In this document: positions 15,876 to 27,889 of the stretch, piece after piece | How positions within the stretch are numbered: position 1 is the first letter of the stretch | Layout: every line of letters begins with the position of its first letter | The notes under the pieces: model-generated | Seen by the model: only the letters and a program-made list of their open reading frames with translations | Told to the model about the DNA's origin: nothing | Databases searched by the model: none | Origin: Candidatus Latescibacterota bacterium | GTDB lineage: Bacteria > Latescibacterota > UBA2968 | Direction of reading: 5' to 3' | Assembly (NCBI GenBank): GCA_965198115.1 | Contig: OZ240241.1 | Span: 2,848,001-2,912,000, forward strand | DNA: 64,000 nucleotides | Translations under genes and position numbers: made by a program

Positions 15876-17249
15876 GAGCTATAATCAAAAGGTGTGGAAA
15901 AAGAGAAAGGGCGACCCTACCCTTCCCGTGAGATAGTTGATTCACACAAAACCGGGTGAGAGGCCCGGTTGGGAAGGAGGATCGCCGTGAAGGAACATAC
16001 GCATAGAGCCCCATTGAAGTCCATGCCGACGTGGGAGACGGTTGACGATTGGATCCGTGAAGAGATCCAGGGCCGGTTCCAGTCCATTCTGGAGGAGGAG
16101 GCGACCGCGTTCTTGGGCCGGTCGTGGTATGAGCGCCGAGCCGAGGTCGATAGCTCCAGGGGCTACAGGAACGGCTACGGCAAGCCCCGGCGTCTCTCGA
16201 CGAGCTGCGGAACGATCAAGGTCCGGCGTCCCCGGGTTCGTGGTCTGGAAGAGCGGTTTGAAAGCCGCATCCTCCCCCTGTTCGCCCGGAGAACCAGGGC
16301 CATTGGAGATCTGCTTCCCGACCTTTATCTCCACGGTCTCTCCCAGGGCGACTTCGAGTTGTCTTTGCGTGCGCTGCTCGGTGATGGCGCGCCGCTTTCG
16401 CCGACCTCGATCGCTCGTCTTCGAGGGAAGTGGGAGGTCGACTTCCAGGACTGGAAAGAAAGGCGTCTGGATAATCGCGAACTGGTCTACGCCTGGGCTG
16501 ATGGCATCTACGTCAAAGCCGGGCTCGAGCGCGAGAAGGCGTGTCTGCTGGTCGTGATCGGCGCGATGAGCGACGGCAGCAAGGAGATCCTGGCGATAGA
16601 ACCCGGTTATCGAGAGTCTACAGAATCCTGGCTCACGGTGCTCCGGGATCTCCGGGATCGCGGGCTCGAACATCCTGTCCTGATCGCCGCGGACGGGAAT
16701 ATGGGCATCTGGGCGGCCGTTGATCAGGTCTGGCCAGAGAGCCGGCAACAACGGTGCTGGAACCACAAGATCCTCAACGTGCTCGACAAGGTCGCCAAGC
16801 GTGCACAGGCTGAAGCCCGCGCACTGCTCGTCCAGATCCCCTATGCCGGCACGAAAAAGGAGGCCGAGAAGCTCCGGAAACGCTTTGCCGCACGGTATCG
16901 CTCACAGTTCCCTGCCGCCGTGGAGACGCTCGAAAGAGACTGGGATCGGATGGTCACGTTCTACGACTTCCCGAAGGAACACTGGAAACACCTGAGAACC
17001 ACGAACGTCGTCGAGAGCCCCTTTGCTTCCGTTCGGCTTCGCACAAACGCCGCCAGGCGATTCAAGAAAGTCAGGAACGCCACGACTCTCATCTGGCGTA
17101 CGCTCAAGGTCGCAGAGAGCCGATTCAGGAAACTCACCGCGCCACACTTGCTACAACAAGTCTACGATCAGAAACACTCAACCGGACCGCAGGTCGAAAC
17201 CGGGAAGATGGCCGCCTGATTTCTTTTACACACCTATTGACCTGAGCTC
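15876..17249 (+). mobile_element. IS256-family type A copy 2 (transposase 15969..17219)
   Basis: Near-identical to copy 1; 9-bp TSD TTCACACGC. Confidence 0.95.
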
Positions 17250-17349
17250 TTCACACGCAAAGATGCAATTCTATTCTCTGGAGATTCAATCGAACACGAG
17301 GTTGGATGGAGAGAGAAAGCCACCTTAGAAGGACTGAATGGGTCCGCAA

Positions 17350-18731
17350 GGTGTTGTGCCTATCGTAGTTGAAACTTAGAGGGCTCCAAACTTACGTTGG
17401 GTAGACGTGTAGGAGCGTATACCCGTAAGAAAGGAGCCCAGATGGAGAAGCTATTTGTAGGCGATGGTGAAGTCAAGGTTGAGGGCGATGTCATCGATTT
17501 GGAGACGCGTTTGTCGGTGATCCAGGCGTTGATCCCGTTGGGTCTGGAGGCAGTGGCAGACCTCCTCCAGCAGGAGGTCGAGCAGCTCGCAGGCGTTCGG
17601 TATGCGCGCAAAGGTTCGGAGCAGGCGCATCGTCGGTGGGAAGCCAGAAGGGATCCGTGTATCTGATGGACCAGAAGCTCCCGTTAGACGTTCCCCGGGT
17701 GCGCGACGTCGAGGCCGACGCAGAGGTTTCCCTGGCTGCATACCGGGCTCTACAGACGCCCAAGAAGACGGACGAGGGGCTGTTGCTTCGTGTTCTCAAG
17801 GGGATCTCGTGCCGCAACTACAAGGCCTGTGCCGAATCGGTTCCAGAAGCGTTTGGTATCTCAGCGTCCTCCGTCTCGCGGCGGTTCATCAAAGCCACCG
17901 CGAAGAAGCTGAAGCAGTTCCAGGAGCGTCCCCTCGACGACTACGGCTTCGTGACCCTCTTCATTGACGGAAAGAGCTTTGCCGACGAAGAGATCGTGAT
18001 CGCTCCGGGGGTCACGATGGACGGCCAGAAGATCCCCCTGGGCTTCGTCGAATCGGCGACGGAGAACGAACGGATCTGCCGCCAGCTGATCCAGGACCTC
18101 ATCTGGAGAGGCCTGTGCTACGACCAGGCCTTCTCGTTGTGCTCGACGGCTCAAAGGGGCTCCGCAGTGCCGTCACCAAAGCCCTCAAAGGGTATGTGCG
18201 CGTTCATCGCTGCCAGTGGCACAAGCGCGAGAATGTCGTCAGCTATCTCCCGGAGAGGGAACGTCCGCGAATCCGACGGAAGCTCCAGAAAGCCTATGAC
18301 TGCGACACCTACGAGGAGGCAAAGGCCGCACTCGAATCACTTAAACCCGAACTGAAGCTGATGAATCAGTCTGCCGTAACGAGCCTCGAGGAAGGCCTGG
18401 AAACCCTGACCCTCCACCGGCTGGGGATGCTCCCGTTCCTGAAACGAAGCTTCCGAACCACCAACTGCATCGAAGCCCTCAACAGCATGACCGGCGAGCT
18501 CACTCGGAAGGTCAACCGCTGGAACAACTCTCCCCAGAGACACAGATGGGTGGCTGCCGCACTCCTCGACATCGAACCTCGCCTGAGACGCGTGAGCAGA
18601 TACAAACATCTTCCCCTACTCAGGCAAGCACTGAACAAAGATCTGAATCTCGACAACGAACAGAATGCTCAAAAGAGAGCCTGACCAAACTACGGGGCCC
18701 GATGAGTTTCAACTGACTATGGGACTTGACC
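17350..18731 (+). mobile_element. IS256-family type B copy 1, frameshifted transposase
   Basis: TIRs GGTGTTGTGCCTATCGTAGTTGAAA / GGTCAAGTCCCATAGTCAGTTGAAA; 9-bp TSD GGTCCGCAA; lacks single bases in homopolymers relative to copies 2 and 3. Confidence 0.9.
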
Positions 18732-18944
18732 GGTCCGCAATCCGGCTTCGGTTTGTGATGAGAAACGCTGAACTTTATTCTTTTAGAATTGGATCTTGAA
18801 TGGTAACGACTTACCCACGAGCGGAGTGTAGTGGGCGTGCCCGGAAGAGGCAAATGAGATCCGAGAAAGTACGTGAGGCGGCCAAGGTGCGGTGGGGGCT
18901 CGTAGAAGGAGCTCGCGCGTCACCGAGCCTAAGAGGTATTTGAA

Positions 18945-20206
18945 ATGAACATCGATGAATTGCACGCAAAAGTTGCCTGTCTCGAGCGAGAACTGCGAGA
19001 GACTCGCGACCAACTCTCGCAGGCAACCCACGACCCCGAGACCGTCACGGCCGAACTCGCTCGCACTCGTGCGTTTGCGTTCAACGCCACAACGGATCCG
19101 GTCAAAGACACCATCGAAGGATGTGTCGACGCCATCAGTCGACACGGGTTCTGCGTCATCGACAACGTCATTCCCGCCAATGAAGTGGACGCCATCCGCG
19201 ATGAAACCGTAGCCGCGAAGTCAAAACAGACCCGGAATATTCAGGCCGTCAAGGACCTGTCCGATCAGAAGGGATTGATGGATGCGGACTTGCTCAACCA
19301 GGCCTCGGCCGATGGCCTGGAGCTGAGGCCTGTGCGCCGATCCGGTCACCCACCCAAACCACCGAACGACATCATATGGATGCCGCAATACGCCCAGCAT
19401 CTGGCCAACCCGGTCGTGACGGCAGTCGCGCGCCGCATCCTCGACGATCATCTCCGGATCGCTCAGCTGCATCCCCGGATCATCGAGTCCGACAGGCCGG
19501 GTGCCACATCAGGGGGATCTGGATCGATCAAGGTGCACGGGCGAGCCGGTATGCGGGGATGGCACACGGACTGGCCTCACGATTTGTCGGCTTACGGCAG
19601 AGCCGATCCGAACGTGAACGCCGGGTGCGTTCGTCAGCCTTTTCCCGACGTGACCCTGTGTCTGGTGATGATCTGGTATCTCACAGACGTGGACGCCGAT
19701 TCGGGCGGCACGTGGGTCGTGCCGGGATCGCACAGGGACCCTCGCAACCCTCGCGGGCCGGCCGACAGAATGGTGGTCACGGCGCCGATCCCCGGAGAGA
19801 TGCAAGTCGCCGCGCCAGCGGGATCGGTCTATATCCAGGATTCACGGTGCTGGCACTCCGCCGCGATGCACAATCCCAGCGACCGGGCGCGGGTTGCCGT
19901 GGTTACCCGCTGGTGCCCCTGGTGGGTGTCGGTCGACGACTTCGCTCCGGGCGACAAATACAATGTCAATATGGTCTGCCGGCCTCTATCGCACGCGGAG
20001 TATCTGGACCTACCTGCCGACCTGCAGCCGTTGCTGCGGCACGTCTGTCCCGAGGAGCGGGATACGCTGCAGCAACCTGTGCTGGACCGCGCCAAGGCGG
20101 CTGGTATGCGTACTCGGGAAGGGTTCCGCCAATTGGAGAAAACGCAGACGGCTTGGCGAATGCGAACGACCACGTCCGAGTACCGGTGGATCGCCTGAGC
20201 GATTGA
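18945..20206 (+). CDS. PhyH-family dioxygenase with N-terminal coiled coil; possible frameshift near 20140
   Basis: GWHTDWPHD, GGTWVVPGSH, DSRCWHSA motifs. Confidence 0.85.
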
Positions 20207-20274
20207 ACGGTGGGTCACATCTGAGGGTGCCGTACTTCCACGTTGAGCCTGGCGAAACGTCCCCGAAATGAAAA

Positions 20275-21695
20275 GGCTATATCCGGATCTCTCAACGAGA
20301 TGAAGTGGGTGAAGGTGCCGTGGTTCCTGGCATGGGGGCGCGGTTAGCGTGTGCGGAACCTCTTCGGAATCTGCTCAGGGATGTTTATGTCTCCGACGGT
20401 AAGGAAGATCATATCGTTGAATGCGTCGAGTGTGCGGAATCCGCTGGCTCGGTTCTTGACGATTTGGACGATTCGGTTGAGGCCTTCGGCGATGGCGTTG
20501 GTAAGACGCGTGTTCACGAATGCGAGGACGCCGAAGAAGTGCTGTCGCAGGGTCCTGACGAACTTTCGCAGGGGTTCACGTCGACTTCTGAGTGCGGACG
20601 TCGTCCAGCATTTCAGGAAGCGTTCGGCAGCCCAGGGCGCTTTGTATTCCCAGAACTGCTCGAACTCGTCCTTGAGTCTCCAGGCTCTATAGATTCGGTA
20701 GTTCGCCTTCTCCAGTGCTTTGAGTGTCCGAGTATCCCCTCTGGAGCGTGTCGCTGAGTGCCGGTAGAGGAGCCATCGGAGGCCCTTCATGGCTTTGCGC
20801 TCATCCGGGGCAGCTTTACGCCACTGGTCCTTACGGACCTCGTCAACGGCGGCATTGAGAGCCTTGACGATGTGAAAGCGATCGAGGACCAGCTTGGCAT
20901 TCGGACAGTGTTCCTGGATGGCTCCGATGTAAGCTTCGCTCATGTCGCAGCAGGCCCACTCGATCTTGGATCTCTGGTAGGGACTGAGAGCCTCTGTGAA
21001 GAACCGATCGATCGTTTTACGCGCCCTGCCGCGGCCAACCCACACCCACGCAGGAGCGGTCCAGATCGTAAACGAGCGTGGCGTACCTGTGACGCTTGGC
21101 GTAGGAGATCTCGTCGATCCCGATGGTTTTGAGCCCTCGGATACGATGACCTTCACGAAGCCGCGTGATGGATCGGTGAAGGAGATCCGACAGCGTCGAG
21201 GCAGAGATGCGCAGCAACTCGGACGCCGCCTTCTGCGTCATGGTCTGGCAGTAGCGCAGCATGGCATACTCGAAGCGATACGTCACCCGAGAGAACCGCT
21301 CCGCCCACGGAATCTCCTCGACCACACGACCGTGGGTAGGACACCGAATCTCCCGAGGATGGTAGAGAAGCCAGACCCTCCACCCGCACACCGGAATGTC
21401 ACGCCACCGACGCAGATGGGGCATTGTGCGGACGATTTTACCTCGACGGCCGCACTCCGGACAACAACAACCATTCTTATGTGGCTTTACGGCGATGACG
21501 AAGCAGCTTCTCCCCTCAAACCACCAGCTGACAACACGGAACCCCTTGAATCTCAGCAGTTTCGATAGTAATCTGCTCCCGGTCATAGGTCGCACCCCCT
21601 TCGCTTTGATTGTCCTACACACACAACCAAGCGTAGGGAACGATCTATGACCTTGTCATTCTATAGTTTCACCGTTGAGAAACCCGGATAGAGCC
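20275..21695 (-). mobile_element. ISL3-family element copy 2, frameshift at ~21046
   Basis: Inverted near-identical copy of 13177-14596; 8-bp TSD AATGAAAA. Confidence 0.95.
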
Positions 21696-21814
21696 AATGA
21701 AAAAGGGTTACGGCTGTGAGCACGTAACCCCTCTGAATTCTTCTTTAGATAGCCGGATGTTCGGTGACCTCGCAGAGCGTCTTGCATCAGGGAGACGCAC
21801 TCGCCCAGATCGAC

Positions 21815-22327
21815 TCAGCCTTCGGTGCCTCCATCGCCCTGGTCTTGCAACTCACCAGCTTCCAAGATTCTGCCACGTTCCTGATAATTTGAAACGAGCT
21901 CTTCGATCGTGCTGTGGAGCGTGCATCCGGAATGGTCCTCGGAACCGCTCTCCTTCTCGAATGCCACGAATAGTGCTCCGAAATCCGGGCTGGTGATGTC
22001 ATACACCAGGATCGGGTTATACCGGCTGTCACGTATCGCCCTTCTGTAATACTCATCTCTGAACAAACGGAACTCGGCAGGCCTCGGCTCCTCGTCACCC
22101 ATCAGTTCCAAGTATCTTTCGGATTCGATCTTGGAGCGAATGTAGCCAGGAACGAAGAATTCAGGACGAGGAGCGTCGAGAAAATAGAGGGTCTGAACGA
22201 GTCCACCGTCCCCATCGCTACGGGGTCCGAATCCGATGCGCGCCAGCGCAGTCAGTCCGACGTCCGGGTCGATCTCCTTCTCGTGCTGCTCGAAAAACAG
22301 CTCATAGATGTCCGGGGGTTGATTCAT
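21815..22327 (-). CDS. Hypothetical acidic protein downstream of the tRNA array
   Basis: 170-aa ORF; no recognised motif. Confidence 0.55.
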   Translation of the reverse strand: MNQPPDIYELFFEQHEKEIDPDVGLTALARIGFGPRSDGDGGLVQTLYFLDAPRPEFFVPGYIRSKIESERYLELMGDEEPRPAEFRLFRDEYYRRAIRDSRYNPILVYDITSPDFGALFVAFEKESGSEDHSGCTLHSTIEELVSNYQERGRILEAGELQDQGDGGTEG

Positions 22328-22482
22328 TCACGATTCCCTACGCGTCGATGGTCTACTCGTTTGCGCCGCGAAGATAGTCTATCCAAATATGCGGCCGCCG
22401 TCGAGGCCGTCGTAGGTGTTTCGAGCTCGGGGGACGAATTAACCGACAACGCAAAACCCGACAGACAACCCAGGGCTCGCCG

Positions 22483-22525
22483 AAGAAAAGACCAACGGGC
22501 CACACAAATTCTGTGCAGCCCGTTG
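22483..22525 (-). terminator. Intrinsic terminator closing the tRNA array
   Basis: Minus strand CAACGGGC...GCCCGTTG followed by GTCTTTTCTT. Confidence 0.6.
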
Positions 22526-22557
22526 TCATTCCAGCAGCCCAAGACAGAGGGCATGAT

Positions 22558-22641
22558 TGGTGGGGCGCTACGGAATCGAACCGCCTATCCGAAAGGCACG
22601 AGGGTTACAACCTCGCTCTCATCCCACTGAGTAGACGCCCC
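22558..22641 (-). tRNA. tRNA-Tyr(GTA)
   Basis: CGAGG-TTGTAAC-CCTCG, V-arm, CCA; C at position 8. Confidence 0.8.
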
Positions 22642-22677
22642 TATGTTGGGATCGACCCTTGCGGGCCAACCGATGAT

Positions 22678-22766
22678 TGGAGGAGGGCACAGGAGTCGAA
22701 CCCGCACCGTTTCCGATGGCGTCACGGTTTTCAAGACCGTTTCCAGTCCACACTGGGCTACCCTCG
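22678..22766 (-). tRNA. tRNA-Ser(TGA), atypical
   Basis: ACGGT-CTTGAAA-ACCGT, long V-arm, CCA; C1.C72 mismatch and odd D-arm. Confidence 0.75.
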
Positions 22767-22807
22767 ATATGGACGAGCCTGATGACGACATCGTGACTCC
22801 TCTGGTC

Positions 22808-22884
22808 TGGCTCCGGTGGTAGGATTCGAACCTACGACTGACAGTGGTTAACAGCCACCCGCTCTGCCACTGAGCTACACCGGA
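22808..22884 (-). tRNA. tRNA-Asn(GTT)
   Basis: GTGG-CTGTTAA-CCAC, canonical D and T arms, CCA. Confidence 0.9.
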
Positions 22885-22889
22885 ACAGA

Positions 22890-22962
22890 TGGTAGCGGGG
22901 ACGGGAGTCGAACCCGCCAAAGCCGGGATATGAGCCCGGCGTGCGCACCAGCGCTCCCCGCA
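22890..22962 (-). tRNA. Initiator-type tRNA-fMet(CAT) with shortened D-arm
   Basis: CCGGG-CTCATAT-CCCGG (three G-C pairs), T1.T72 mismatch, CCA. Confidence 0.8.
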
Positions 22963-22969
22963 CAAGGTT

Positions 22970-23043
22970 TGGAGCGATCGGAGGGAGTCGAACCCTCATC
23001 ATCAGCTTGGAAGGCTGAGGCCCTGCCGTTAGACGACGATCGC
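22970..23043 (-). tRNA. tRNA-Gly(TCC)
   Basis: TCAGC-CTTCCAA-GCTGA, T73, CCA. Confidence 0.9.
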
Positions 23044-23044
23044 T

Positions 23045-23109
23045 CTGAACCCGACGTTGCGCGTCGCCTCGTTCCTCCTTGTAAGGCCGGGCATTGCGCT
23101 CACTCGGGT
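23045..23109 (-). pseudogene. Degenerate tRNA-Val(TAC) remnant
   Basis: CTTACAAGGAGG anticodon-arm half and ACCCGA/TCGGGT acceptor-like pairing; no intact T-loop or CCA. Confidence 0.4.
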
Positions 23110-23112
23110 AAG

Positions 23113-23189
23113 TGGTAGTCGCCCCGGGATTCGAACCCGGACTGAACGCGCCCTCAACGCGATCCCTCTGCCGGTTGGGGTAGGCGACT
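23113..23189 (-). tRNA. tRNA-Leu(GAG) without long variable arm (77 nt)
   Basis: CGCG-TTGAGGG-CGCG, 5-nt V-loop TCAGT, A73, CCA. Confidence 0.85.
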
Positions 23190-23190
23190 C

Positions 23191-23267
23191 TGGTAGGGGC
23201 GGAGAGATTCGAACTCTCACTTTACACGGTCTGAACGTGCTCCCTCTGCCGATTGGGGTACGCCCCT
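23191..23267 (-). tRNA. tRNA-Leu(CAG) without long variable arm (77 nt)
   Basis: GCACG-TTCAGAC-CGTGT, 5-nt V-loop AAAGT, A73, CCA. Confidence 0.85.
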
Positions 23268-23272
23268 AATGT

Positions 23273-23346
23273 TGGTGCCCGCTGGAGGACTCGAACCCCC
23301 ATTTCGTGGTCCGTAGCCACGCGGTAATCCCTTAGCCTAAACGGGC
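23273..23346 (-). tRNA. tRNA-Arg(ACG)
   Basis: CGTGG-CTACGGA-CCACG, CCA. Confidence 0.85.
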
Positions 23347-23351
23347 AGTAC

Positions 23352-23425
23352 TGGTGTCGCGGGACGGATTCGAACCGCCACTGTCTGGTCTTCAGCCAGA
23401 GGTGCTACCGTTACACCACCACGAC
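23352..23425 (-). tRNA. tRNA-Phe(GAA)
   Basis: TCTGG-CTGAAGA-CCAGA, CCA. Confidence 0.9.
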
Positions 23426-23430
23426 AACAT

Positions 23431-23506
23431 TGGGGTGATCGATGGGATTCGAACCCACGGCGACCCGGTCCACAGCCGGGCGTTCTACCGCTGAACTACG
23501 ATCACC
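23431..23506 (-). tRNA. tRNA-His(GTG)
   Basis: CCCGG-CTGTGGA-CCGGG, G-1:C73, CCA. Confidence 0.9.
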
Positions 23507-23510
23507 ACGA

Positions 23511-23597
23511 TGGGGCCGGTGGCAGGACTTGCACCGGCGTGGGGCTTACGCCCGGCTGCTTACAAGGCAGCTGCTGTCGCTACTGAGCCACACCGGC
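23511..23597 (-). tRNA. tRNA-Thr(TGT) with long variable arm (87 nt)
   Basis: GCTGC-CTTGTAA-GCAGC, V-arm GGGC-GTAA-GCCC, T-loop TGCAAGT, G1-C72 and C2-G71, CCA. Confidence 0.8.
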
Positions 23598-23606
23598 AGT
23601 CTGTTT

Positions 23607-23681
23607 TGGAGCGTCCGAGGGGAATCGAACCCCTGTCTGCGCGATGGCAACGCACCGTCTTGGCCGCTGGACCACGGACGC
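23607..23681 (-). tRNA. tRNA-Gly(GCC)
   Basis: GTGCG-TTGCCAT-CGCGC, CCA. Confidence 0.9.
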
Positions 23682-23689
23682 TGTCTGTC

Positions 23690-23764
23690 TGGCGCCCCCA
23701 CGGGGAGTCGAACCCCGATTTGCTGATCGACAATCAGCTGTCCTGGCCGTTAGACGATGGGAGC
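23690..23764 (-). tRNA. tRNA-Asp(GTC)
   Basis: GCTGA-TTGTCGA-TCAGC, G73, CCA. Confidence 0.9.
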
Positions 23765-23765
23765 G

Positions 23766-23841
23766 TGGTGGACCGGGTAGGCTTCGAACCTACGATCTCC
23801 CGCTTAAGAGGCGGGTGCTGTGCCGACTTAGCTACCGATCC
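23766..23841 (-). tRNA. tRNA-Lys(CTT)
   Basis: CCCGC-CTCTTAA-GCGGG, CCA. Confidence 0.9.
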
Positions 23842-23856
23842 ACGATTTCAAAGAGC

Positions 23857-23931
23857 TGGAGGGCAGGGACGGAATCGAACCGTCGTTGAGCCGGGTTGCA
23901 ACCGGCCGCTTTGCCACTTAGCTACCCGCCC
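23857..23931 (-). tRNA. tRNA-Cys(GCA)
   Basis: GCCGG-TTGCAAC-CCGGC, T73, CCA. Confidence 0.9.
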
Positions 23932-24004
23932 TGGCGCGCCGTCGAGGTGTCGAGCCCCGCACACCGGGTTTTGGAGACCCGATTGGACGCCGGTCCCCGG
24001 CGCG
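23932..24004 (-). tRNA. tRNA-Trp(CCA), degenerate D and T arms
   Basis: CGGGT-CTCCAAA-ACCCG, CGCGCCG/CGGCGCG acceptor-like pairing, CCA; T-loop lacks TTC. Confidence 0.65.
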
Positions 24005-24008
24005 TATC

Positions 24009-24076
24009 TGGTGACCCCGGAGAGTCGAACTCTCAAGGTTCTTAACCTGATGCGTATGCCATTCCGCCACGGGGTC
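24009..24076 (-). pseudogene. Truncated tRNA-Leu-like gene with AAG anticodon (68 nt)
   Basis: Leu-type D-arm GCGGAATGGCATACGC, AGG-TTAAGAA-CCT, V-arm missing, 5-nt T-loop, perfect acceptor stem and ACCA. Confidence 0.65.
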
Positions 24077-24080
24077 GTGT

Positions 24081-24157
24081 TGGTTGGCGCGGTCGGACTT
24101 GAACCGACTGTCTCTCGCTTATAAGACGAGTGCCTTTACCCCTTAGGCTACGCGCCG
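24081..24157 (-). tRNA. tRNA-Ile(TAT)
   Basis: CTCGT-CTTATAA-GCGAG, C4-G69, A73, C1.A72 mismatch, CCA. Confidence 0.85.
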
Positions 24158-24163
24158 ACAAAA

Positions 24164-24238
24164 TGGTGACGACGGAGGGAGTCGAACCCTCGTCTTCTGG
24201 TTGAAAACCAGAGATCCTGACCGTTGAACGACGCCGTC
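24164..24238 (-). tRNA. tRNA-Glu(TTC)
   Basis: TCTGG-TTTTCAA-CCAGA, CCA. Confidence 0.9.
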
Positions 24239-24313
24239 TGGTGGCCCGAGCAGGAATCGAACCTGCCTCGAGCGGTTTAGAAGACCGCTGCCTCTCCAAT
24301 AGGCTATCGGGCC
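24239..24313 (-). tRNA. tRNA-Arg(TCT)
   Basis: GCGGT-CTTCTAA-ACCGC, CCA; abuts tRNA-Glu with no spacer. Confidence 0.9.
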
Positions 24314-24315
24314 GT

Positions 24316-24392
24316 TGGTGCGCCCGACAGGATTCGAACCTGCACAGTTCAGATTAAAAGTCTGATACCCGACCGGATTGGGTGACGGACGC
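24316..24392 (-). tRNA. tRNA-Lys(TTT)
   Basis: TCAGA-CTTTTAA-TCTGA, CCA. Confidence 0.9.
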
Positions 24393-24443
24393 ACGGATTC
24401 CGTGTCTTCTCGTTTTCCTGTGTTTTCGTGGTCTGCGTTTCAT
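24354..24443 (-). other. Candidate 29-aa Lys/Arg-rich mini-ORF overlapping tRNA-Lys(TTT)
   Basis: MKRRPRKHRKTRRHGIRASVTQSGRVSDF; GGA upstream of the ATG; stop codon lies in the anticodon loop. Confidence 0.4.
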
Positions 24444-24457
24444 CGTGCGTTCCGTTT

Positions 24458-24531
24458 TGGCACGGGGCTGAGGAATCGAACCCCAATTCGAAGAGTCAAA
24501 GTCTTCCGTCTTCCCGTTAGACGAGCCCCGT
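24458..24531 (-). tRNA. tRNA-Gln(TTG), first gene of the array
   Basis: GAAGA-CTTTGAC-TCTTC, G73, CCA. Confidence 0.9.
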
Positions 24532-24533
24532 AC

Positions 24534-24569
24534 AAAGAAAAACCCCATCAGATCGTGGTCTGACGGGGC
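24534..24569 (-). terminator. Terminator/attenuator hairpin directly upstream of the tRNA array
   Basis: CCCCGTCAGA-CCACGA-TCTGATGGGG followed by TTTTTCTTT, ending 2 nt before tRNA-Gln. Confidence 0.75.
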
Positions 24570-25238
24570 CTCGGTGATTCTGCTTCTGCGATTGGTTCTA
24601 CGTCACCGTTACCCCGCCAGTCGAGTCTTGTGTGCCATCCAGGGCATACATAAGCGTCCACGCGGATTCAAAGGTCGCGTCGCCGCAATGGACCTGCCCG
24701 GATTTGCGTAGTGACGATATGGGAAACGATGATCTCATCGAAGGTTCTGTCTCTTGTAAAAAGGTTTTCCGCTCCTCACACAACATTAGACACACCCAAC
24801 GTCAAAGCGGTTCCGCAATTCTTCCTCGAATCCAGATATTCCAGATGGTCCCGGCCTTCTCGGCAATCTTTTCTTACAGAACCACCGGGATATGGTCGGT
24901 TGGCTGTCTGTTTGCCGCCTACTTGGATTTATCGGCAAACTTCGAGCCAATCTTATCCAGTTCATCAAATTTTTGGTAACGTGCATCCCGAAGCCCGATC
25001 CTACTTACTGTCTTGACTCGGCATCCTTGACAGTGACAGCCTGGCTCGTTGCGAGCTGGTCTACATAGTCCTTGTATCTGCCCATTCTTACTCCGTGATT
25101 GCAGACGCTTTACCTGAGACGAGGACAGGCGCACCTGTGTTTCGTCGAGTTGACAGGCAAGGATCGGTAGTTTCGATGCCGATGACATCCACTTTCTGTG
25201 CAGTCTGTACAGTCAGGTTAGGGACGATATTGGCCTGA

Positions 25239-25868
25239 ATGTGCTTTCAAGCTGTCAAATGGCTCAAGAAACACCCTCTCGCAACGGTGACGCCCACTGG
25301 ATCGCTCCCCTCGCTCACAACGGCCGTGACTGGCGAGAACGTCAGGGGCAGCTGGTGGAGTCACCCGAAAGCGCACGACATCTACGCCGCCTGCCAGGCC
25401 CTGGATCGAAGCCCTTTCGTTCTCACCACCAAGTTGGTCAACCCCAAGGTCACCTTCATTCATCGTCGGATCTGGGGAGAGCTCTTGCGTGTGACCCTCG
25501 ATCGCGAGTGGGAAAGGGCCACGACCGTCGGCCTCGATCCCGCCACGAGAAGGATGCTCAGAAAAGTCAAGACTCTGGGTTGCGTTCGCTGGAACGACCT
25601 GACCGAGAGATCGCGAACAGACAGAAAGGTACTGCTCCAACGTCGACAAGCAGTCATCGAGAGGGGACTCGTTATCACGAGCCAAATGCACACCGAATCT
25701 GGCCGCCATACCGCTTTACTACAGTCCTGGCAGAACTTCTCCGAAGAGACAGCATCGCGACCCCATACAACCCTCGCCCTCTCCGAGGCGCTCGAACGGA
25801 TGAGAACCTGGGCGAAAGGTTGTGCGTTGACGATCGATGCTTTTTCCCGTGGGGGTGAAGCAGAGTAG
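25239..25868 (+). CDS. Hypothetical protein
   Basis: 209-aa ORF; RGSWWSHPKAHDIY...KLVNPKVTFIHRRIW. Confidence 0.65.
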   Translation: MCFQAVKWLKKHPLATVTPTGSLPSLTTAVTGENVRGSWWSHPKAHDIYAACQALDRSPFVLTTKLVNPKVTFIHRRIWGELLRVTLDREWERATTVGLDPATRRMLRKVKTLGCVRWNDLTERSRTDRKVLLQRRQAVIERGLVITSQMHTESGRHTALLQSWQNFSEETASRPHTTLALSEALERMRTWAKGCALTIDAFSRGGEAE

Positions 25869-25958
25869 TCATCGAGGCCGACACTCGTGCGGGCCAGCCC
25901 TCTGCCAATGGATCCTAGTACCTGACGCCGAACGGCCATTGAATTTTGACATCGACCT

Positions 25959-27889
25959 ATGAACAGACCGTTTGATAGCTGGAAGCCCATCACCGAAGAC
26001 GACGATGCCATCGCGTCAGCCCTCGAATCGGCCAACATCCCCACGTTGATGATGGCACTCGTCCACATCACCGGCGATGCAAGCATCATCCGAGGCGACA
26101 TCCGACCCGATTACTCGGTCCTCTACGACACGACGCTCGGCCTCACGAAAGATCAGAAGGCGGAGATCAGGGCGATCGCACTCGAAGTTCTCAAAGCGTA
26201 CCGAGACGCAGGATGCCCCTTGCCGGCGAAACTCGCGATCGAGCAGATTCGGCCGATGCTCGGATTCCTCACGGCGCGTGACCTCACGGACGACTACGTC
26301 GAGTTTCTGATGGGAGACCTTTCCCTGGGAGGCGAGGATCCTTATCAGCAGCCGGGTCTTCATCTTCTTTAAAAGAAAAACGTCAGGCATTTCAGGTTCT
26401 GATCATTGGCGCCGGTATGTCGGGCATCCTCGCAGCCCACAGGCTCAAAGAAGCGGGTATCGGGTTCGAGATCGTCGAGAAGAACAGCGATGTGGGCGGA
26501 ACCTGGTTGGAAAACACCTATCCCGGCTGTCGGGTCGATTCGCCGAATCACAGCTACTCCTACTCCTTCCTGCCGAATGACTGGCCTCAATACTACTCCC
26601 CGCGGAAAACCCTACTCGAATATTTCCAACAAGCCGCATCGGGCGCCGACATCCGTGATCACATTCGGTTCAGCACGGAAGTCGAGTCGGTCATCTTTGA
26701 CGAGCACAGCCGGACCTGGACGGTCACGGTCAAGAAGGCGGATGGGACCGAGGACAGACTCGTCGCGAACGCCGTCATCGGTGCCGTCGGCCAGCTCAAC
26801 AGACCCCGGCTCCCGGACATCGCACGACGCGAGCGTTTTGAGGGTCCCTCGTTCCACACCGCCCGATGGGAGCATCACCACGACCTGACGGGAAAACGGA
26901 TCGGCGTCATCGGAACGGGCGCGAGTGCGTTCCAGACCGTGCCCGAAATCGCGAAACAGGCCACGGACGTCTTCGTTTTCCAACGTACGCCGCCCTGGAT
27001 CTCCATTCGGCCCGAATACCACGACGATGTTCCCGCGGGCAAGCATTGGTTGCTCAACCACGTCCCTTACTACGCAAAGTGGTTCCGGTTTTATATGTTC
27101 TGGCGTTCGTCCGAGGGTCTTCTGCCGTGGGTGATGAAGGATGATGCGTGGGAGGATCAGTCGCGCTCGGTTGGGCCGGAGAACGATGAACTGCGCAGGG
27201 TCTTGACGGAGAGAATGGCCTCAATCATCGAGGACGACGAGGATCTGTTGAAGAAATCCATTCCCGACTTTCCACCCGCCGGGAAGCGAATGCTCGTCGA
27301 CAACGGCACCTATCTGAGAGCCCTCAAGCGAGAAAACGTCCACCTGATCACCGATCCGATTGCAGAGATTACCGAAACCGGCGTATCAGCCGAATCGGGC
27401 GCACACTACGATGCCGACGTGCTCATCTACGCGACAGGCTTTCACCCCAGTCGGATTCTCTGGCCGATGGAAATTCGGGGGCTCGGGGGTCTCGACCTCC
27501 AGACGCATTGGGACGGGGACCCTCACGCCTACAAGGGTGTCAGCATCCCCGGATTCCCCAATTTCTTCTGTATGTACGGGCCGAACACCAACATCGTCGT
27601 GAACGGGAGCATCATCTTCTTCTCAGAGTGCGAAATGCGTTACATCCTCGGATGCATCAAGCTCCTGATCGAGAACGAGCACTCGGCGATGGACTGTCGC
27701 CAGGATGTTCACGACGCCTACAACGAATGGATCGACCAGGGCAACGCGAACACGGCGTGGGGCGCACCTCACGTCAGGAGTTGGTACAAGAATGAAAGGG
27801 GCCGTGTCACACAGAACTGGCCCTACTCGATGATGGCGTTCTGGTCCCAGTCGAAGGCGCCCGATCCATCGGACTACATCTTTACCTGA
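25959..27889 (+). pseudogene. Baeyer-Villiger/flavin monooxygenase with N-terminal extension (HAPMO-like), frameshift at ~26370
   Basis: IIGAGMSG, GGTWLENTYPG, FHTARW fingerprint, GTGASA; split into ORFs 25959..26372 and 26417..27889. Confidence 0.85.

Follow-up and report, generated by a model that had tools for sequence, protein, structure and literature searches.

A Lys/Arg-codon mini-ORF that runs into a tRNA-Lys(UUU) gene: member of a widespread family and candidate ribosome-stalling sensor

Promoters and growth rate are usually taken to govern how much tRNA a bacterium has. A repressor is said, in a study of TrcR, to control the trn array of Anabaena at promoter repeats, and some T-box riboswitches precede tRNA genes. 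Defence nucleases repeatedly target tRNA-Lys(UUU), and both the PARIS nuclease and PrrC are reported to cut it. In the whiB7/wblC system, as described in the accessible part of PMC11550727, complete translation of a uORF favours an intrinsic terminator, and interruption of that translation frees an antiterminator. L-arrays, such as the trn operon of Anabaena, are presented in the main text of PMC8421152 as long, non-periodic and patchily distributed arrays of supernumerary tRNAs that are induced by translation stress; that main text makes no mention of attenuation, leaders, terminators, uORFs or spacers, and it places the Anabaena operon under a repressor without describing any gene-by-gene gating inside the array. 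In the work on PARIS and phage T5, the T5 tRNA-Lys was cloned with a 20 bp flank, and its leader is not discussed in the accessible part of that report (PMC11464382). Full-text literature searches, covering mainly open-access papers and their main texts, gave no account of tRNA genes that are gated by a minigene.

The window (the whole stretch of 64,000 nucleotides that was analysed) carries on its minus strand an array of 20 called tRNA genes and two uncalled units within 2 kb (22558-24531), with a terminator-like hairpin at its end (22493-22525). The first gene is tRNA-Gln(UUG) (24458-24531), followed after a spacer of 65 nt, 46% of it A, by tRNA-Lys(UUU) (24316-24392), the predicted gated gene, and by tRNA-Arg(UCU) (24239-24313), which starts 2 nt past it; these three genes were called by ARAGORN and Rfam. 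The rest of the array (22558-24238) consists of 17 called genes and two cloverleafs that neither ARAGORN nor Rfam called, one Leu(UAA)-like (24009-24078) and one Trp(CCA)-like (23933-24006, minus strand). The host genome (8.4 Mb, 74 tRNA genes) has separate housekeeping copies of Lys(UUU), Arg(UCU) and Gln(UUG), and a promoter-like stretch lies directly 5' of its housekeeping tRNA-Lys(UUU) gene; a scan of the locus found no sigma-70 consensus promoter. A search of 167 further genomes from the phylum, many of them incomplete, did not find the array. Its Ile(UAU) pattern matched two of 168 phylum genomes, the second match not being a tRNA, and a three-gene remnant was present in the same genus, 40 related genomes otherwise giving single-tRNA matches only. 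The array is thus long, same-strand and non-periodic, supernumerary to a dispersed housekeeping set and patchy in distribution, and it fits the L-arrays as characterized in the main text of PMC8421152 because of the separate housekeeping genes and because it was not found in those 167 genomes. Plasmid searches with blastn gave no matches with the window and four partial matches with L080. A public contig matches positions 22400-25000 with zero differences and may be the source of the present DNA. Mutator-family and ISL3-family transposase genes lie just downstream of the array (15969-21622), and ORF lengths hint at more repeated IS copies in the window. A flavin monooxygenase-like gene (25959-27889, plus strand) is apparently split near 26372 into frames of 137 and 490 aa, which may reflect a frameshift or an error of assembly.

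The spacer between tRNA-Gln and tRNA-Lys holds a mini-ORF of 29 codons (24354-24443, minus strand), 17 of them ahead of tRNA-Lys and 12 within it, which reads MKRRPRKHRKTRRHGIRASVTQSGRVSDF. The first-pass annotation had described here an ATG-led frame in a spacer of about 65 nt, entering tRNA-Lys(UUU), stopping at the TAA of its anticodon loop and followed by tRNA-Arg(UCU); ARAGORN and the ORF calls agree on the frame and on a spacer of 65 nt, the stop falls at 24354, and the coordinates confirm the order of the genes. Its count of nine Lys or Arg among the first 13 codons (AAA x3, AGA x3, AGG, CGA, CGC) was also borne out. When the spacer was shuffled 20,000 times with its dinucleotides preserved, a fraction of 0.00045 reached at least nine and a fraction of 0.036 had three AAA codons; some ATG frame with one AAA was present in 36% of spacer shuffles. 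Among 206,793 genomic ATGs on both strands, ten are followed by at least nine Lys/Arg in 13 codons, and the mini-ORF alone has three AAA too; an MKR start combined with CGA-AAA-C is found at two ATGs of the host genome, the mini-ORF being one. The expectation that these codons would be rare held for AGA and AGG (7% and 8% of the Arg codons of the host) and moderately for AAA (33% of Lys codons), and failed for CGA (18% of Arg codons). The AAA codons are located at -48, -33 (as CGA-AAA-C) and -24 nt from position 1 of tRNA-Lys, with AGA-AGA at -18/-15. A weak Shine-Dalgarno-like GGA (24451-24453) sits in an A-rich 14-nt stretch ahead of the ATG, and its -3.5 kcal/mol equals the median of 1,366 long-ORF starts of the host (random-ATG median, -2.1). 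A small predicted hairpin, CACGG-AAT-CCGTG (24392-24404), spans the junction of leader and tRNA; it is no stabler than shuffles (q=0.46; 36 of 200 equally stable), and the influence of the leader on tRNA folding is that of shuffled leaders (0.61 against a mean of 0.52; 0.02 against 0.19, with about 53% as low).

With high confidence we regard the mini-ORF as a real feature, belonging to a widespread and apparently undescribed family. The family element is a short ORF that starts 28-60 nt 5' of an accessory tRNA-Lys(UUU) and reaches or enters that tRNA, with AAA mostly as AAA-C and often within CGA-AAA-C, and tRNA clusters of phages and bacteria show this arrangement dozens of times. A metagenomic contig, L055, repeats the order seen in the window (leader ORF, terminator, mini-ORF, Lys, Arg). 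Its mini-ORF (MKRRPHKQK), which reads MKRRPHKQKTKPRKHARFQP into tRNA-Lys and has Arg(UCU) as the next gene, aligns codon for codon with the start of the window's copy; column identity across the ORF-plus-tRNA region is about 79%, and the SD is likewise modest. The metagenome search for Lys(UUU)-Arg(UCU) tandems was blind to the spacer and listed 120 of some 990 stretches. In a GC-rich array type, all seven loci with 48-53 nt ahead of tRNA-Lys (two identical, four near-identical) have an SD, an ATG and AAA-CAG, the other members having 0-3 nt there.

In loci chosen without regard to SD or ATG, and among distinct spacers of at least 35 nt, an SD-led ORF was present in 7 of 59 before Lys(UUU), six with AAA, and in 12 of 220 before other tRNAs, two with the cognate codon. 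In IMG/VR, GGAG-ATG ahead of tRNA-Lys(UUU) was found at 105 loci, of which 99 have a tRNA call; 54 of these remain distinct at a 70% limit. Two controls were used, one with GTA replacing ATG (69 loci, 43 kept), in which 21 distinct loci stand against the 54 with ATG in the same place, and one with other tRNAs in two samples (at least 120 loci each; at least 79 and at least 107 kept; at least 59 and at least 62 distinct). An in-frame AAA was present in 34 of 54 SD-led ORFs before Lys(UUU), whereas with other tRNAs downstream the count was 29 of 119 among the matches listed (p=1.4e-6), and AAA accounted for 45 of 572 in-frame codons versus 33 of 1,038 out-of-frame triplets (p=4e-5), p-values that, like those given below, overstate the case because the loci were de-duplicated by similarity only and include kin that are not independent. 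A C followed AAA in 30 of 45 instances in the Lys(UUU) set and in 15 of 50 in the controls. The AAA:AAG ratio in GC-rich loci (19:3) was not clearly above that of controls (9:3). The reverse design, in which ATG-AAR-MGN was selected and the SD left free (93 loci, 82 kept, 55 distinct), recovered an SD in 30 of the 55, against 8 of 55 at a control position 30 nt further upstream, together with an additional AAA in 38 and CGA-AAA in 19.

A pooled set was made of 43 distinct members with SD and AAA-C, 14 of them Lys/Arg-rich and 29 not, the AAA-C and Lys/Arg-rich classes having been defined post hoc with the data already seen. In this set, 25 of the 43 ORFs are in the frame that meets UAG at tRNA positions 8-10 (p=7e-4, overstated as above), the stop falls at offset +7 to +10 in 19 (17 of 121 controls), and in 41 it lies within 20 nt of the tRNA, inside it or past it; AAA stands between -36 and -20 in 33, its overall spread being -49 to -6. 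This UAG is the commonest stop of the family, whose conserved feature is not an end within the anticodon loop. The first-pass annotation had looked to conservation as its check, and start, frame and AAA codons do recur in many otherwise dissimilar arrays, specifically at tRNA-Lys(UUU). AGA/AGG is also enriched where Arg(UCU) is the next gene (7 of 13 ORFs, versus 7 of 37 otherwise), and ATA occurs in 8 of 11 ORFs preceded by an Ile(UAU) or CAU tRNA, versus 5 of 33 otherwise; six of 56 members in this tally had no next tRNA. The sensing of both Lys and Arg that had been proposed can be kept with Lys as the core signal and Arg as a secondary one, cognate codons being found directly before Arg(UCU) in just 3 of 29 ORFs, against 12 of 141.

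Before Ile(UAU) the same pattern was seen in small numbers (ATA in 5 of 8 ORFs), and the ORFs with CGA-ATA there probably form a sister family; in L353, L496, L535 and L557, SD-led ORFs with CGA-ATA lie directly ahead of tRNA-Ile(UAU). Cognate-codon ORFs showed no enrichment before Arg(UCU), Thr(UGU), Met or Asn in the IMG/VR controls, among the matches listed, nor before Ser(UGA) in viral loci (2 of 17 against 17 of 175; of the 120 loci, 91 lacked a tRNA call). The window itself contains a serine-codon ORF (22585-22791, minus strand), with a strong SD of -7.9 kcal/mol and the start ATG TCG TCA TCA GGC TCG TCC ATA, which runs through tRNA-Ser(UGA) (22682-22765); it is a single instance, at 0.0016 of shuffles, and the stretch noted ahead of the tRNA is 22766-22807. 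The 69-nt spacer before tRNA-Gly(UCC) (23044-23112, minus strand) forms one long hairpin of -29 kcal/mol with AAGGAGG, and its ORF, MPGLTRRNEATRNVGFRAIVV, has AGG-AGG and ends within the tRNA; this spacer may represent a further gate or the remains of a tRNA-Val(UAC).

Several narrower searches came out empty. A strict tandem search of genome contigs gave five loci, none with the mini-ORF; the Lys-Arg tandem was present in two of 301 genomes of Streptosporangiales, neither with an SD-led ORF; and for housekeeping genes of Actinomycetota the SD-start-Lys(UUU) pattern occurred in seven of 301 genomes, with AAA upstream of the tRNA in none of the seven matched strings. Among cultivated phages, one of nine Lys(UUU) genes examined was preceded by an SD-led ORF with AAA, that of Streptomyces phage BRock (L812, 585-712); this ORF has AAA at -24, reads through tRNA-Lys(UUU) and, in the annotation of the phage, opens a long protein-coding gene. 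In phage T5 (L806, 5241-5408), the 55-codon gene T5.065 has its stop at -1 of tRNA-Lys(UUU) and AAA at -39 and -24, which is only a lead because ORFs near tRNAs are common in T5. A phage clan (L173, L181, L184, L193, L213, L221 and their kin) has SD-led ORFs before tRNA-Lys(UUU) with repeated AAG (MDSDKSEKI), not AAA. In L090 and L059, HNH/endonuclease-VII-like ORFs, recognized by eye from CxxC and DHDH motifs, are inserted near tRNA-Lys, and L090 also has a duplicated 5' half of tRNA-Lys. Hungry-codon frameshifting was considered and rejected, the +1 and -1 frames having no common stop.

It is likely that the family ORFs sense a shortage of tRNA-Lys(UUU). For the mini-ORF of the window we lean, without strong conviction, towards a ribosome-stalling sensor, with folding or 5' processing of tRNA-Lys gated by the position of the ribosome and, in this copy, by ribosome traffic. 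If AAA is read fast, ribosomes would enter or terminate on the 5' acceptor strand of tRNA-Lys, which either termination at +7 or run-through would cover; alternatively, ribosomes would leave and a leader hairpin would capture that strand. With the acceptor strand covered or captured, cloverleaf folding and RNase P cleavage would be blocked. If tRNA-Lys is depleted, cleaved or uncharged, the ribosome would instead halt at AAA, some 20-35 nt upstream. When AAA occupies the A site, the ribosome shields about 12-15 nt downstream, and with a stall at -33 or -24 its front edge would fall short of tRNA-Lys, so that the tRNA could fold and be cut out. The idea of a sensor acting on processing, put forward in the first-pass annotation, is partly supported, and it would fit the geometry of mini-ORF and tRNA-Lys.

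Two versions of this gating are predicted, one with a junction hairpin in GC-rich members and one by ribosome traffic alone in Lys/Arg-rich members. In AAA-C members the hairpin starts a few bases past AAA and takes up roughly the first nine bases of the tRNA; it beats shuffles in 13 of 26 (q<=0.1; p=6e-6 against 162 controls, overstated like the others). When the whole tRNA was folded, the acceptor stem was lost in 13 of 26, compared with 23 of 59 and 17 of 59 in controls (29-39%) and 2 of 19 in the AAA-less set. Blocking the leader up to AAA+12 brought the stem back in 12 of 13, a near-inevitable outcome, since blocking restores folding almost by construction. The hairpin signal is confined to the 29 members that are not Lys/Arg-rich; for the 14 that are, the mean difference was -0.03 kcal/mol, and because no hairpin is seen there the output step proposed for them is taken from geometry only. 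For 12 hairpin-type members picked by hand, RNAalifold gave no consensus pair. In single folds, only five of 12 tried were stronger than all but 6 of their 200 shuffles, and simple measures of leader-tRNA pairing were null or weak.

Continued transcription had been suggested as a further output of stalling. At the mini-ORF this is not supported, as no terminator-like site is present on the minus strand between 24531 and 22525. Transcriptional control is predicted to map to a separate leader attenuator (24533-24738), absent from the first-pass annotation. There, a 46-codon leader ORF (24598-24738, minus strand), using 19 of the 20 amino acids and without a Pfam match, ends in a predicted antiterminator (24612-24620, minus strand) complementary to the 5' arm of an intrinsic-terminator-like hairpin with a T run (24533-24572, minus strand) that lies directly before tRNA-Gln, an arrangement of uORF ending in an antiterminator and intrinsic terminator before the first gene that is also that of whiB7. 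The distance from leader stop to hairpin is 27 nt in the window and 26 nt in L055, whose leader ORF has 51 codons. The duplex of antiterminator and terminator arm reaches -20.6 kcal/mol in the window (1.9% of codon shuffles as strong) and -20.3 kcal/mol in L055, where it is a perfect 9-bp match (0.1%). In folding models with a ribosome at the leader stop, the terminator formed at 1.00 in the window and in L055 alike. When the ribosome was stalled further upstream, the antiterminator won at equilibrium in L055 (0.81-0.86); in the window it prevailed only while the transcript was partly made (1.00), its share on the complete one being 0.08-0.25. From these two loci and their models, the leader is predicted to be a translation-stress attenuator of the whiB7 type, under which the mini-ORF would be a second tier, with the leader admitting transcription of the array under translation stress. 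The terminator motif in seven other genomes of the phylum was at gene ends or bidirectional, with a tRNA nearby in none of six examined (L711 was left out by the T-tail filter). The rtcB gene (G000:C1:6545607-6547200) is far from the array, right behind an AbrB/PIN-type gene pair as judged by eye, and its region has no leader of the ORF/antiterminator/terminator kind.

The main rival to maturation gating, which we consider possible though improbable, keeps the same sensor and gives it another output, so that stalling at AAA would control transcription elongation, through Rho access or pausing, or RNA decay, for the part of the array that lies downstream. All the codon evidence fits this output equally well, and the match of codons to the preceding Ile and following Arg tRNAs, which suggests group sensing, as well as the varied distances of CGA-ATA in the four Ile(UAU) ORFs, where in two cases it stands last before the stop, speak for it; the absence of a terminator-like site after the mini-ORF, the start of the ORFs within 60 nt of the tRNA with a preferred stop at tRNA positions 8-10, and the capture of the acceptor strand by junction hairpins in one class speak against it. 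It is more doubtful still that the family is real while this copy has decayed or goes untranslated, so that only an A-rich linker derived from a former sensor is left. The weak SD, the leader without significant structure and the two uncalled tRNA-like units in the array would agree with decay, but the start, the frame, the three AAA and CGA-AAA-C are intact at the identity to L055 given above, the -3.5 kcal/mol of the SD is the host median, the SD of L055 is modest too, and members without an SD exist, such as L780 (MKRKPRKCRKR). Even less credit is due to a basic peptide acting in trans, or to constitutive ribosome loading that protects the precursor without any sensing. AAA as second codon favours initiation, and many members begin with MKRK and are very basic; however, the peptides share little past the Lys codon (MKIKQAVRIRT, MGDDGKSGKR, MMDLKQAR), their C-termini are read from tRNA sequence and an NCBIfam search of the ORF peptides gave no match, while constitutive loading leaves the restriction to Lys(UUU) and the tracking of neighbouring anticodons unexplained. 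A chance frame in a purine-rich spacer, for which the A content and the frequency of single-AAA frames in shuffles would speak, is largely refuted by the nine Lys/Arg codons, the uniqueness of the mini-ORF among the genomic ATGs, the close match to L055 at the same position, the specificity of in-frame AAA for Lys(UUU) and the recovery of SDs in the reverse design, and we hold it to be very improbable.

Whether translation-gated tRNA genes make up a general, undescribed regulatory class in phages and mobile tRNA arrays is for us an evenly balanced matter. The same even weight goes to the form proposed for such gates, a cognate-codon minigene fused to tRNA-Lys(UUU) whose back-up tRNA would mature only when ribosomes stall for want of that very tRNA, as might happen once an anticodon nuclease of the host has struck; Ile(UAU) would probably be within the class as well, and so would Ser(UGA) in the present window. 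In the window, such gates would be placed beneath a leader attenuator acting on the whole array, a reading that has, in our judgement, about as much for it as against it. If true, this would be anticodon-specific feedback at the step of tRNA maturation, built from about 50 nt. It would bear on the reasons for which phages and mobile elements bring along tRNAs that the host already has, and on how a foreign tRNA array stays useful without unbalancing the host pool. It would also offer a small genetic reporter of tRNA depletion, and short synthetic constructs would make it cheap to test. Because tRNA-Lys(UUU) is recurrently hit by defence nucleases, the element predicts an inducible counter-defence, and nuclease counter-defence may be a plausible selective reason for the sensor.

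Among the known systems, the accessory tRNA-Lys(UUU) of phages facing host tRNA nucleases is a back-up, as the gated gene would be; the PARIS/T5 work, in the part of PMC11464382 that is accessible, concerns resistance of the tRNA, and the proposal made here is that such a tRNA would be produced conditionally. No minigene of the mini-ORF type is present in T5, and a 55-codon gene abuts its tRNA-Lys instead. T-box riboswitches also respond to whether one particular tRNA is charged, but they bind the uncharged tRNA directly and without translation, which the mini-ORF proposal needs; a T-box reading of the locus was rejected, as Rfam over 21500-26000 at E<=1 returned tRNA matches and weak unrelated ones, and no T-box. 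The whiB7/wblC attenuator, to the extent described in the accessible part of PMC11550727, resembles the leader at 24533-24738 with its long, unbiased uORF and not the Lys mini-ORF, and it governs a transcription factor, whereas that leader, predicted from two loci and folding models, precedes a tRNA array. The mini-ORF can further be compared with the amino-acid leader-peptide attenuators (trp, his, pheST and, in the accessible part of PMC11550727, the ilvB-II uORF), which are likewise short ORFs with codons of the sensed tRNA and in which stalling reports a shortage of charged tRNA, as is proposed here too. The mini-ORF has such codons and an SD, weak in this copy, but no intrinsic terminator or sequestered ribosome-binding site follows it, the next element being a tRNA gene. 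We class the element as new because of its output and because of these differences, the output being inferred and the sensing half borrowed from attenuation. Unlike the leader-peptide attenuators, the mini-ORF overlaps the gene that it would regulate, that gene is the tRNA which reads the sensor codon, and its predicted output is the folding or processing of this tRNA in place of a terminator or a ribosome-binding site.
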